DNA of 64,000 nucleotides, taken from IMG/VR virus record IMGVR_UViG_3300031867_000002, positions 64,001-128,000 of that record. One strand, 5' to 3'. Positions 722 through 32,242 of this stretch are shown in pieces. A model generated the notes under the pieces. The model searched no databases. It was not told where the DNA came from and saw only the letters and a program-made list of their open reading frames with translations. The DNA is from a virus (lineage: Duplodnaviria > Caudoviricetes). Position 1 is the first letter of the stretch, and every line of letters starts with the position of its first letter. The position numbers and the translations under genes are program-made.

Positions 722-733
722 TAATTGAAAGTT
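722..733 (-). promoter_or_regulatory. late-type promoter AACT-N6-TA (one of 22 copies)
   Basis: AACTTTCAATTA on the minus strand just upstream of the nuclease RBS. The same motif precedes 22 genes (listed in findings). Confidence 0.7.
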
Positions 734-757: not shown

Positions 758-772
758 TATATTATTATAGTG
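758..772 (+). promoter_or_regulatory. early-type promoter TATATTAT-N6-G
   Basis: TATATTAT-TATAGT-G. The motif recurs 10 times before stand-alone cassettes or operons. Confidence 0.7.
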
Positions 773-853
773 AATAGTAGAGGTCAGACAATGCTATTCT
801 GAAACTCCACGAGGATATGGAGAATATAATACGTTTGCTTTTGAAAGGAGCTA
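772..853 (+). ncRNA. structured 5' leader, copy A (three hairpins, the last covering the SD)
   Basis: Near-identical to 30161-30242 with two compensatory base-pair changes. Confidence 0.65.
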
Positions 854-22175: not shown

Positions 22176-22212
22176 GTAAAAGTTTACTATGTTACTTGTA
22201 TATAATAATAAT

Positions 22213-22353
22213 GAATAGAAGATAATAATCTGCTGTTCAACTGGAGCGTGTAAAAAGTCTACGTTCCAGATTCCGTATATATTTATTTAAATCTTTTAGG
22301 TAAGAGGCCTAGTCAGCCCACCACTTAGTGGTCAGTCCTAGGAGGACAAAATT
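22213..22353 (+). ncRNA. structured 5' leader of early cassette
   Basis: Follows TATATAAT-N6-G (22199-22213). GAATAG/CTGTTC stem at +1, CTGGAGCGT/ACGTTCCAG, and CCTAG/CTAGG overlapping the SD. Confidence 0.5.
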
Positions 22354-30076: not shown

Positions 30077-30160
30077 ACAATTACCTCCTAACATTATTAA
30101 GTCATTATTAAATAGTTATTGATGTGAAAGTTAAAGGATTTGAATATATATTATTATAGT

Positions 30161-30242
30161 GATTAGTAGAGGTCAGACAATGCTAATCTGAACTGCACGA
30201 GGATATGCAGAATATTAATCTTTTAGCTTTTGAAAGGAGCTA
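30161..30242 (+). ncRNA. structured 5' leader, copy B
   Basis: Homolog of 772-853, preceded by the same TATATTATTATAGTG promoter (30147-30161). Confidence 0.65.
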
Positions 30243-30248
30243 TATATC

Positions 30249-30734
30249 ATGGAAAACAAGAAAAATGAACAACAGGTAAAATTTGAAGATTATCTTAAAA
30301 ATCTCTACGAAAAAGACAAGCCCACGACAGAAGAATTAACTCAATGGGGTTGGAACTTTAAAGTCGGCTCTGCTTTACAGATTGACCTTATTGATGCTGA
30401 AACAGACTCCGTCAAAGTTCGTTATCTCGGAAAAGAATTCCGAGTAACAATGATTGACAATGACTTGCTGGACAAAATTTTTAAGACAATTGAAGATGTT
30501 ATTTATACAACACTTCTTCTTAACTGCGACAACATGAAAGAAGAGGAAAGACAAGAGTTACTTTTCAAGTTTACAAGGTTCAAAACTCTCCTCGAAGAAC
30601 AGTATTCAAGGGGGAAGAAGAATTACAACAACAAGATTGTTGAATTAGCTAGAAAAGGCCCTGTTATTAATTCTCCTTCTTCAGATTTTAAATTTCCGAT
30701 AGTAAATACTCCTGGTAGTGAACGGAGCAAATAA
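30249..30734 (+). CDS. hypothetical early protein
   Basis: AAAGGAG RBS; stand-alone cassette with terminator at 30739-30772. Confidence 0.7.
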   Translation: MENKKNEQQVKFEDYLKNLYEKDKPTTEELTQWGWNFKVGSALQIDLIDAETDSVKVRYLGKEFRVTMIDNDLLDKIFKTIEDVIYTTLLLNCDNMKEEERQELLFKFTRFKTLLEEQYSRGKKNYNNKIVELARKGPVINSPSSDFKFPIVNTPGSERSK

Positions 30735-30738
30735 AGAA

Positions 30739-30772
30739 TAAAAGAACGGGACTTTACATCCCGTTCTTTTTT
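30739..30772. terminator. bidirectional intrinsic terminator
   Basis: AAAAGAACGGGA-loop-TCCCGTTCTTTTTT between convergent genes. Confidence 0.85.
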
Positions 30773-30775
30773 ATG

Positions 30776-32242
30776 TTACTTGATATCAGATACGTTTACC
30801 CAACCAGTTACATAATTACCAACTGGAGTTTTGCCTGCATTTTCTTTTTTGTTAGTAATACGAATTCTTCCTTTAATCACTTCATCACTATACACGTAAT
30901 AAGTACCAGTCTTCTTAGAAGAATATCTGGAAGCACTTGCAGAAGCATAAAGACATGTGCTACTAAGTTTTACTTCTTTACCAGCAGTAATAGCAGTATC
31001 CTCCTTCTTAGTTTCAACAACTGGCTCTGGTGAAACAACAGGTGTACTACTACCATATACATCTTCCTTAGAAAGACCATAATAAGAGTAGAAGTCTTTG
31101 GTAACAGTGTTATTAGAAACAACCTCATTACCGAGCCATCTATAACCCTGTCTCACATCAAGATGGATTGCTGTATATGTCTTGTTGATATTTGCAATAC
31201 CACCGAATACACCTTCCATATCTTGAGCAGCACAGGAAATCTTCTTAGTAGAAATAACGGCTTTATTCTTATCATAGAATACTACGTCTGCAGCATCACC
31301 GACAGAGTGTTTACCAGCAAATCCATTCATATTAGTATCGTATTCAGGACAACGATATCCACTGTTTACGATAATCATAGAGCAGTCAAATTTCTCAAAC
31401 AGTTTTTCAAGACCAGCAACAAGTCTAGTATTGATTACAATATCATGCTTTTTACCACACTTACACTTGAACTCTTGCACATTAAAATGCTTAGATAACT
31501 GGGTCTTATCACTATAAGCATAATGTTTCTGTTCATATGTGGTTGTAGAAGAATCAATAGGATAAGTTACATTTGTATGTTCTACTACCACTGGTGTAGG
31601 TGTTACAACTTCACCATTCTTAGTATAACCATTATAACCACCCTTTTGAATAATTTCTGGATAATTATCTACATAACAGTAGTTCATATCAAATTCACAA
31701 GAGATTCCATTAAGTCTTCCCTTAGAAGAATACTGCCACATCTTATGTCCAGTATAAGAAGTAGAAGAAGCATAATGTGCAAGCCAGATATCATATCTAC
31801 CATCTTGTATATCACTAGGAATAAAGCTTCTAAACATAGAATAGTAAGAATATAGACCTACATAATAACCAGCATTCTTTACAGTATCCATGAAGTTAGT
31901 GATTACTGCTCTAGCAACAGACTTATTCTTTTGTCCTTCTGCTCCTGGAAATGCTTCATAGTCAAACATAACAGGATATTCAAACTTCTTACCTTTCACA
32001 CAAGAAAGAAAAGCCTTAGCTTCTTGAATAGCTTCAGAACCAGATGTAGCATAAGATGCCCAGTAGCAACCCTTTGGAATACCATACCTTTCACAAGCAG
32101 CATAATATTCTTCAAAGCGTTCATCTTTTTGAGAAGTAAGTCTACCATATCCAGCTCTGATAATAACAAAATCTACTTGTCCTTTGAGTTTGGAAAAGTT
32201 AATACTACCATTCCATTTAGAAATATCTACGCCTTTAAGCAT
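30776..32242 (-). CDS. endolysin: GH25 muramidase + peptidase M15 + C-terminal SH3-like cell-wall-binding domain
   Basis: GVDISKWNG...FVIIRAGYG...PVMFDYE...WLAHY...MWQYS (GH25); HFNVQEFKCKCG...NSGYRC...H..G.AAD...IHLDVR (M15); GRIRIT...GWV. Confidence 0.9.
   Translation of the reverse strand: MLKGVDISKWNGSINFSKLKGQVDFVIIRAGYGRLTSQKDERFEEYYAACERYGIPKGCYWASYATSGSEAIQEAKAFLSCVKGKKFEYPVMFDYEAFPGAEGQKNKSVARAVITNFMDTVKNAGYYVGLYSYYSMFRSFIPSDIQDGRYDIWLAHYASSTSYTGHKMWQYSSKGRLNGISCEFDMNYCYVDNYPEIIQKGGYNGYTKNGEVVTPTPVVVEHTNVTYPIDSSTTTYEQKHYAYSDKTQLSKHFNVQEFKCKCGKKHDIVINTRLVAGLEKLFEKFDCSMIIVNSGYRCPEYDTNMNGFAGKHSVGDAADVVFYDKNKAVISTKKISCAAQDMEGVFGGIANINKTYTAIHLDVRQGYRWLGNEVVSNNTVTKDFYSYYGLSKEDVYGSSTPVVSPEPVVETKKEDTAITAGKEVKLSSTCLYASASASRYSSKKTGTYYVYSDEVIKGRIRITNKKENAGKTPVGNYVTGWVNVSDIK

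Follow-up and report, generated by a model that had tools for sequence, protein, structure and literature searches.

Why should two unrelated, presumably early genes of one phage begin with the same promoter and the same transcribed leader? The question is raised by a 64,000-nucleotide stretch of DNA (the window; bases 64001–128000 of the 224,632-bp virus record IMGVR_UViG_3300031867_000002), in which positions 758–853 and 30147–30242 form a near base-for-base repeat. A first-pass annotation of the window had described the repeat as a shared promoter with a leader of about 80 nucleotides (nt), and the alignment, which extends from about 757/30146 to 853/30242 with few differences, bears this out, as does a 20-mer from the leader that occurs exactly twice in the window (0.02 expected). 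Both copies lie in divergent intergenic regions. Behind copy 1 stands gene A (861–1313, + strand; start codon at 861), a 150-residue ORFan taken from the list of open reading frames (ORFs), and behind copy 2 stands gene B (30249–30734, + strand; start codon at 30249), a 161-residue ORFan. The two proteins are unrelated, as annotated: they have no mutual similarity and neither belongs to a Pfam or PHROG family, and a peptide-pattern search of IMG/VR returned no relatives of the gene B product. The two annotated copies are real, but they are not the only ones. A third, near-identical copy lies outside the window at genome positions 208192–208259, flanked by a terminator on its 5′ side and a third unrelated ORF on its 3′ side, and a diverged fourth copy lies at genome position 40009; the phage thus carries at least four copies.

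The record is that of a jumbo phage with direct terminal repeats and 31.7% G+C, whose DNA is present in bovine-gut and other gut metagenomes (16 studies). Its genome encodes homologues of RNA polymerase (RNAP) subunits, two β-like (PF00562, two ORFs) and one β′-like (PF00623, one ORF), and the only cultured relatives of a marker protein encoded next to copy 2 are AR9/PBS1, Staphylococcus jumbo phages and a few others, at about 30% identity. Based on these polymerase homologues and the distant similarity to AR9/PBS1, we place the phage, which is uncultured, among the relatives of the jumbo phages that have multisubunit polymerases of their own. No RNA run on record contains the phage; two runs labelled metatranscriptomic, probably of DNA, have only small parts of it as contigs.

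This relationship bears directly on the promoter. The early promoter of AR9, mapped by differential RNA sequencing (dRNA-seq) and primer extension, is AAATATATATTAT-(6N)-G+1, and the virion polymerase transcribes from it with no need for newly made protein (PMC5312081). The 15-mer TATATTATTATAGTG is common to the two window copies and recurs before many genes, the motif being found ~21–30 times in the genome. Both window copies, TATATTAT-TATAGT-G at 758–772 (copy 1, + strand) and the same 15-mer at 30147–30161 (copy 2, + strand), match the core TATATTAT-N6-G of the AR9 consensus, and copy 3 agrees with it at 13/13 bases plus the N6 spacer and the G. The sequence of the leader promoter therefore fits an AR9-type virion-RNAP early promoter, its transcripts are presumably early, and +1 is predicted at the last G of GTG (772 and 30161). 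Given this G as the start, hairpin 1 of the leader begins at the first transcribed base; a start downstream of the stems, which the first-pass annotation had named as an outcome that would speak against a leader RNA, is not expected from the AR9 homology. A sigma-70 promoter on the + strand was considered and rejected, there being no usable −35 element at 16–18 nt from any overlapping −10-like hexamer and a better fit to the AR9 consensus. Upstream of both promoter copies, the window positions 726–733 and 30125–30132 have the 8-mer TGAAAGTT (minus strand AACTTTCA) in common, which may belong to an AACA/AACT-N6-TA late-type promoter of the divergent genes.

Folding from the predicted +1 yields −14.5 kcal/mol for copy 1 and −14.3 kcal/mol for copy 2 (z about −3; 77% of the ensemble), whereas folds that include the promoter and coding flanks give z-scores that are not significant. 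In the minimum free energy (MFE) fold of copy 1, hairpin 1 (772–799, + strand) pairs arms 772–779 and 792–799 over 8 bp, one of them U·G, around the loop GAGGUCAGACAA (780–791). Hairpin 2 (805–822, + strand) pairs arms 805–809 and 818–822 around the loop CGAGGAUA (810–817), and hairpin 3, GCUUUU-GAA-AGGAGC (837–851, + strand), which is present in MFE folds, contains the Shine-Dalgarno (SD) sequence AGGAG at 846–850. The corresponding + strand elements of copy 2 are hairpin 1 at 30161–30188 (arms 30161–30168 and 30181–30188, loop 30169–30180), hairpin 2 at 30193–30210 (arms 30193–30197 and 30206–30210, loop CGAGGAUA at 30198–30205) and hairpin 3, again GCUUUU-GAA-AGGAGC with the SD inside, at 30226–30240.

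The differences between copies 1 and 2 are paired in both stems, as the annotation had described. Stem 1 reads GAAUAGUA/UGCUAUUC in copy 1 and GAUUAGUA/UGCUAAUC in copy 2, A775/U797 becoming U30164/A30186. In stem 2, C807/G820 (CUCCA/UGGAG) is replaced by G30195/C30208 (CUGCA/UGCAG), and loops 1 and 2 are identical between the copies. In copy 3, the 5′ arm is that of copy 1 and the 3′ arm that of copy 2; these mixed arms leave an A·A mismatch in stem 1, and the fold is ~4 kcal/mol weaker. The orthologous leader of the copy-3 gene in a related metagenome contig (L233) is correctly paired.

To place these changes in a family, we built covariance models from the copies and collected homologues from related IMG/VR genomes and metagenome contigs. 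Folds from +1 put hairpin 1 flush at nucleotide 1 in 13/14 members and form hairpin 2, after a linker of 4–5 nt, in 12/14. Among 20 distinct homologues, standard pairs occupy 97.5% of 241 stem cells, against 24–53% in slid controls, and 98% of stem-1 cells; because the main alignment was fitted to the model and many of the sequences are close relatives, we take these counts as supportive rather than as a formal test. Both-sided changes occur at 4/5 pairs of stem 2, which appears as CUCCA/UGGAG, CUGCA/UGCAG, CUGU/ACAG, CUAG/CUAG, CUAGA/UCUAG, CAGG/CCUG, CUGG/CCAG and CCCA/UGGG, and one strain contig carries a G-C to G·U change there. Stem 1 varies less than stem 2, and its exchanges (A-U/U-A, G-C/G·U and U·G/U-A/C-G) keep the pairing; in the related genome G002, one stem-1 pair is deleted on both sides. 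A single contig at depth <5 hints at a further both-sided deletion in stem 1, and it was not counted as evidence. The 5′ arm of stem 1 (GAAUAG...) is more conserved than the 3′ arm, which is explained by the start of AR9 early RNAs, likewise GAUA/GAAUA.

RNAalifold, run on a separate MAFFT alignment made without fitting to the model, recovers hairpin 2 only; hairpin 1 was missed because MAFFT misplaced its 5′ arm in the group of members with short loops, and the support for hairpin 1 comes from the single-sequence folds and the model-fitted alignment. Changes that keep wobble pairs favor RNA pairing over recognition of duplex DNA. The comparative data thus support the annotation's reading of the leader as a selected, structured, cis-acting RNA, in which both predicted stems are backed by covariation and compensated indels.

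The annotation had recognized no known family in the leader, which agrees with the searches that we made. Rfam gave no matches in the whole window at gathering thresholds, and a permissive scan returned noise only (E ≥5; 11–15 bits against thresholds of 44–50). A blastn search of the leader against 50,697 cultured-phage records gave no match. Scanning IMG/VR with both exact loops produced two chance matches only, in coding DNA of an unrelated, GC-richer virus, and scanning it with the 14-mer ATAGTGAATAGTAG gave, among the matches listed, mostly chance hits and no new members.

Both loops had been called invariant, which holds only within this genome; beyond it, a single motif is widely kept. 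Six members, from three genomes, retain the loop 1 sequence GAGGUCAGACAA; elsewhere it is replaced by GAGGUCAA, GAGGUCGGA, GUUGAA, GAAGAAAA or unrelated sequence. Loop 2, on the other hand, displays CGAGGA(W) in 13 distinct members over five stem-2 sequences (CUCCA, CUGCA, CUGU, CUAG and CCCA), with CUAGGUUA or UGGUAUU in other members and no hairpin 2 in one. Constancy of both loops is thus limited to this genome, and a specific role is plausible for the loop-2 motif only. The SD-covering hairpin, correctly noted in copies 1 and 2, is not a family feature: it occurs in three members only (copies 1 and 2 and the metagenome member L265) and is absent from copy 3 and from the gene-A orthologue of the close relative G001.

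Loop 1 also contains the beginning of a very short reading frame. In it GAGG is followed after 7 nt by AUG CUA UUC UGA in copy 1 (window 780–803 and, in copy 2, 30169–30192), encoding MLF* in copy 1 and MLI* in copy 2; the arrangement GAGG-N7-AUG, two codons and a stop (MLF*/MLI*) is found in copies 1–3, and the G001 member keeps the AUG with UAA in place of UGA. GAGGU of loop 1 and GAGGA of loop 2 would each form only 4–5 pairs with the 3′ end of 16S rRNA, loop 1 being replaced in some members. Across the early leaders, positions +3 to +25 contain AGAG in 19/68 and GAGG in 10/68 candidates, against 5.5 and 2.8 in shuffles, a count that includes redundant copies and some false promoters. The motifs are often followed by UC (GAGUC/GAGGUC), and their position is variable, which argues against a simple downstream promoter element.

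We find the leader before at least 8 unrelated proteins. In G001 the whole unit of promoter, leader and gene B is absent at the same site, and the gene-A orthologue has the same promoter with a 26-nt leader that lacks the hairpins. At the copy-3 locus, genomes G000 and G001 lose homology immediately 3′ of hairpin 1 and regain it beyond the gene, the intervening ORFs being different, and in G002 the leader occurs at yet another locus. The same promoter and leader before many unrelated ORFans suggests a patch of homology for insertion, loss and exchange of early-gene cassettes.

The surroundings of genes A and B contain further features. A bidirectional terminator of 12–13 bp (window 30740–30770) separates gene B from a convergent endolysin gene (GH25 and peptidase M15; 30776–32242, minus strand), and the same terminator is found in G001, where gene B is absent. 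Directly 3′ of gene A, positions 1400–2206 encode a 268-residue protein whose N-terminal part is a PemK/MazF-like toxin domain (Pfam, 1e-9), extended by ~130 residues; no obvious antitoxin gene was seen adjoining it. In relatives, the leader family is located just downstream of this PemK/MazF-like gene.

What the first-pass annotation had missed is that the leader is one case of a wider rule. A hairpin of ≤−6 kcal/mol starting at +1 or +2 follows 12/21 well-matched early promoters of this genome, compared with 13% of shuffles (p about 3e-6), and 11/18 after the repeated leaders are dropped. A distant relative (G019, 63% marker-protein identity) has a +1 hairpin at 10/17 promoter-like sites with an SD downstream. 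In AR9 (NC_031039.1), none of the 18 consensus early promoters is followed by such a hairpin (0/18), and the early leaders are ~20–45 nt long and unstructured. The +1 hairpin is therefore neither a property of this polymerase type nor needed by it. Rather, +1-flush hairpins are predicted on most early transcripts of this rumen clade and characterize it, the leader studied here being the instance repeated most often.

Other early-type promoters in the genome have leaders of their own. At window 22199–22245, the promoter TATATAATAATAATG is followed by a flush hairpin (GAAUAG...CUGUUC) with an inner hairpin (−9.5 kcal/mol); its 5′ arm and stem 1 of the repeated leader are related. At 2253–2330, the promoter TATATTATTATTGTG precedes a long leader that opens with GAUAGUGAGUG and closes with CCACUAUUGC; it resembles the leader at genome 125628 (−), about window 61628 on the minus strand, and may represent a second structured leader family. 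Another repeated early leader, G(U)AAGAGGUUACUG ... GACCUCU, is found outside the window at genome 42167 (+), 156162 (−) and 187293 (−), in at least two or three copies with different genes downstream.

What might such a leader do? With about even confidence, we propose to read the element as an AR9-type early promoter with a modular 5′ leader fused to it, a leader that likely acts as a stabilizer, possibly has a role in ribosome binding, and serves as a recombination joint. The mRNA would be born with its triphosphate end buried in the 8-bp stem of hairpin 1, and a second short hairpin, after the 4–5 nt linker, would display the SD-like CGAGGA in its loop. A flush 5′ hairpin could block decay that depends on the 5′ end, whether by an RppH-type pyrophosphohydrolase, an RNase J1-type 5′ exonuclease or end sensing of the RNase E/Y type. 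In the manner of STAB-SD elements, the exposed GAGG loops may also bind ribosomes as a road-block or standby site, and promoter and leader together may double as a recombination joint for early-gene cassettes.

In our analysis a stabilizing effect is the most likely function. [quoted passage not shown] The 5′ stem-loop of T7 gene 10 likewise stabilizes its mRNA (Mertens 1996, as cited in PMC6146998). Given the predicted +1, nucleotide 1 of the leader is modeled as paired in all but one of 14 members (13/14), as would be expected of a 5′ stabilizer. A contribution from ribosome binding is suggested by the GAGG-AUG of loop 1 and the GAGGA of loop 2, motifs that are short and not present in all members.

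Several observations weigh against this proposal or restrict it. The predicted start depends on homology to a phage with only about 32% marker-protein identity, and decay of the RNase J/RppH type in the host is assumed from the Firmicute-like SDs and from the relatives. Any effect of the leader must be modulatory rather than essential, because the close relative manages without it and the stem 1 of copy 3 contains the A·A mismatch. The SD-like matches span 4–5 nt, and one subgroup has lost the GAGG of loop 1. A plain stabilizer leaves the conservation of CGAGGA over five stems unexplained, which points to a specific partner. Finally, given the 0/18 of AR9, any benefit of a +1 hairpin is specific to this clade.

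The main rival to a stabilizer takes up that conserved loop. On this account, an RNA-binding protein recognizes the CGAGGA loop of hairpin 2, and perhaps also the SD with its GGA, and tunes or times translation of the early genes, the candidates being host CsrA or a phage repressor or activator of early mRNAs in the manner of T4 RegA. Conservation of CGAGGA(W) in 13 members over different stems is the pattern of a recognized loop rather than of a structural plug, a GGA in a hairpin loop resembles CsrA sites, as the first-pass annotation had remarked in suggesting CsrA-type binding, and the SD contains a second GGA. The consensus selected for CsrA by systematic evolution of ligands by exponential enrichment (SELEX) is RUACARGGAUGU. 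The CsrA suggestion itself finds no specific support: loop 1 lacks GGA, and a search for PF02599 found no CsrA homologue in the phage genome. A protein site in general is also difficult to reconcile with the members whose loop 2 is CUAGGUUA or UGGUAUU or that have no hairpin 2, with the position of hairpin 2, mostly 20–35 nt upstream of the SD, which makes direct occlusion unlikely, and with the gene-A orthologue of G001, which works without the leader. We consider such a site unlikely, though worth keeping in view. Alternatively, loop 1 could be a real ribosome-binding site with a three-codon mini-ORF, where a 30S or 70S ribosome, bound or translating at the 5′ end, acts as a road-block or as a standby that assists the structured SD downstream. 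The frame shared by copies 1–3, the AUG kept in G001 and the enrichment of GAGG and AGAG at +3 to +25 of early leaders are in its favor, and in Bacillus ribosome binding near the 5′ end stabilizes mRNA without translation (PMC3997798). The frame, however, is poorly kept: AUG becomes AUA in L265 and most short-loop members, a change that merely turns the U·G of stem 1 into U-A, the gap from GAGG to AUG is only 3–4 nt in L233 and L040, and the ORF varies from 3 to 6 to 17 codons. The AUG is moreover half buried in stem 1, and the enrichment count holds the redundant copies and false promoters mentioned above. We regard this mini-ORF as distinctly improbable. To a similarly small chance we assign a further reading, in which the flush hairpins and the CGAGGA loop form a clade-specific identity tag on virion-RNAP transcripts that doubles as a joint for ORFan genes. 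If so, the phage would tell its own early mRNAs from those of the host, for example to spare them from a phage RNase (a PemK/MazF-like gene adjoins copy 1) or to direct them to ribosomes during host shut-off.

Two other alternatives place the signal in the DNA. The repeat could be a DNA-level element with no function as RNA, in which GAAUAGUAG is only the initially transcribed part of the promoter and the inverted repeat serves early shut-off as an operator or is merely a recombination joint; the copies would be similar through gene conversion or because they were duplicated recently. In its favor, conservation is far stronger in the 5′ arm than in the 3′ arm, the 5′ arm is similar to the +1 region of AR9 (GAUA/GAAUA), copies 1–3 are near-identical, indel breakpoints fall inside the module, and the PeSL cassettes of T4-type phages are a precedent for promoter-linked recombination motifs (PMC2839356). 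The pattern of substitution nevertheless fits RNA of the + strand, in which G-C/G·U and U·G/U-A changes keep pairing; the other strand would carry A·C mismatches. Stem 2 covaries fully with its loop kept, the arms are spaced by 6–13 nt, which is unsuited to a dimeric DNA binder, and both stem-1 variants occur in one genome, where compensatory changes would make no sense for a single DNA-binding protein. A purely DNA-level explanation is accordingly very unlikely in our judgment. The other alternative, a sigma-A-like promoter on the minus strand (TTGTCT-16 nt-TATAAT) that would serve the upstream, oppositely oriented genes, we consider highly improbable. It has 10/12 matches at window 791→764 and 30180→30153, and the divergent setting of copies 1 and 2 would suit it. 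Yet copy 3 and several homologues have a terminator upstream and no divergent gene, the TATAAT is an automatic by-product of the early promoter read in reverse and the TTGTCT is the reverse of loop 1, the regional number of such matches equals the shuffle expectation, and AR9-type phages transcribe with their own polymerases (PMC5312081).

A stabilizing leader at the start of an exchangeable cassette is the reading that we carry forward, and the interpretation of the first-pass annotation is partly supported. Jumbo phages with their own RNAP are known mainly from a few cultured models, and the fate of their early mRNAs is largely unexplored. In the present case, a structured leader has become fused to the start site of the early promoters in an uncultured rumen clade, a step that the best-studied relative, AR9, did not take. 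If the hairpins stabilize, the units would be compact, portable expression parts made of a promoter, a 5′ cap-like hairpin and an SD, and they would hint at a selective pressure specific to the clade, such as host or phage RNases. The leader also provides a simple marker for hypervariable early genes in metagenomic jumbo phages.

Several known systems share features with the element. As in AR9 and phiKZ-like phages, its promoter has the extended, AT-rich form TATATTAT-N6-G with G at +1 and a GAUA/GAAUA start, stands before small genes without assigned function, and occurs in a genome with split/multisubunit RNAP homologues. The N6 spacer is conserved as TATAGT in this phage, unlike in AR9 promoters, and whereas AR9 leaders are short and unstructured, most early transcripts here are predicted to have a hairpin at the start, and copies of one type of leader recur.

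As a predicted stabilizer, the leader resembles the 5′ stem-loops of E. coli ompA/papA, T7 gene 10 and B. subtilis aprE and ermC, which lie upstream of an AU-rich spacer and an SD; in T7 such a hairpin is also coupled to a phage-polymerase promoter (Emory 1992, Mertens 1996 as listed in PMC3997798/PMC6146998). There is no sequence relationship to these elements, the 5′ arm of our leader is the conserved start region of the promoter, and behind it comes another hairpin, whose loop is conserved; the function here is predicted. The STAB-SD elements of B. thuringiensis cry3A and of phage SP82 early RNA share a purine motif of SD type close to the 5′ end and well away from the true start codon, on a Gram-positive or phage mRNA, and the SP82 early transcript is a phage precedent for a polypurine 5′ stabilizer (refs 106, 179 in PMC3997798). 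A canonical STAB-SD is a long unpaired GAAAGGAGG, whereas the leader offers 4–5 complementary bases in hairpin loops and not in every member. CsrA/RsmA hairpins likewise present GGA in a short loop of a 5′ leader and another GGA in the SD. They differ in that GGA is found here in one leader loop but not in the other, that the preferred A two bases before GGA is a G, and that the phage encodes no CsrA.

A parallel to the arrangement as a whole is the PeSL (promoter-early stem-loop) of T4-type phages, a repeated promoter and stem-loop before ORFan early genes in plastic regions, with indel breakpoints at the motif (PMC2839356). In this phage, breakpoints of that kind are seen at the gene-B cassette, at the copy-3 locus and in the presence or absence of the leader at the gene-A locus, and the PeSL combination of promoter and terminator is lacking. 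A PeSL has a sigma-70-type promoter and, upstream of +1, a G/C-rich stem-loop positioned ahead of, inside or immediately behind the −35/−10 boxes, which terminates upstream transcription (PMC2839356). Our leader has a phage-RNAP promoter and transcribed, AU-rich hairpins with no U-tract. Given the different promoter and placement of the hairpins, we regard it as an analogue of PeSL and not a member, and its link between an RNA module and cassette exchange carries the PeSL idea from T4-type phages to another polymerase system. The jumbo-phage transcriptome papers that we searched gave no account of hairpins at the +1 of virion-RNAP transcripts. The AR9-type early promoter, the 5′ stabilizer hairpin and the promoter-linked recombination cassette are thus each of a known kind; their fusion in one element, the covarying two-hairpin family and the clade-wide rule of hairpins at +1 appear to be new.

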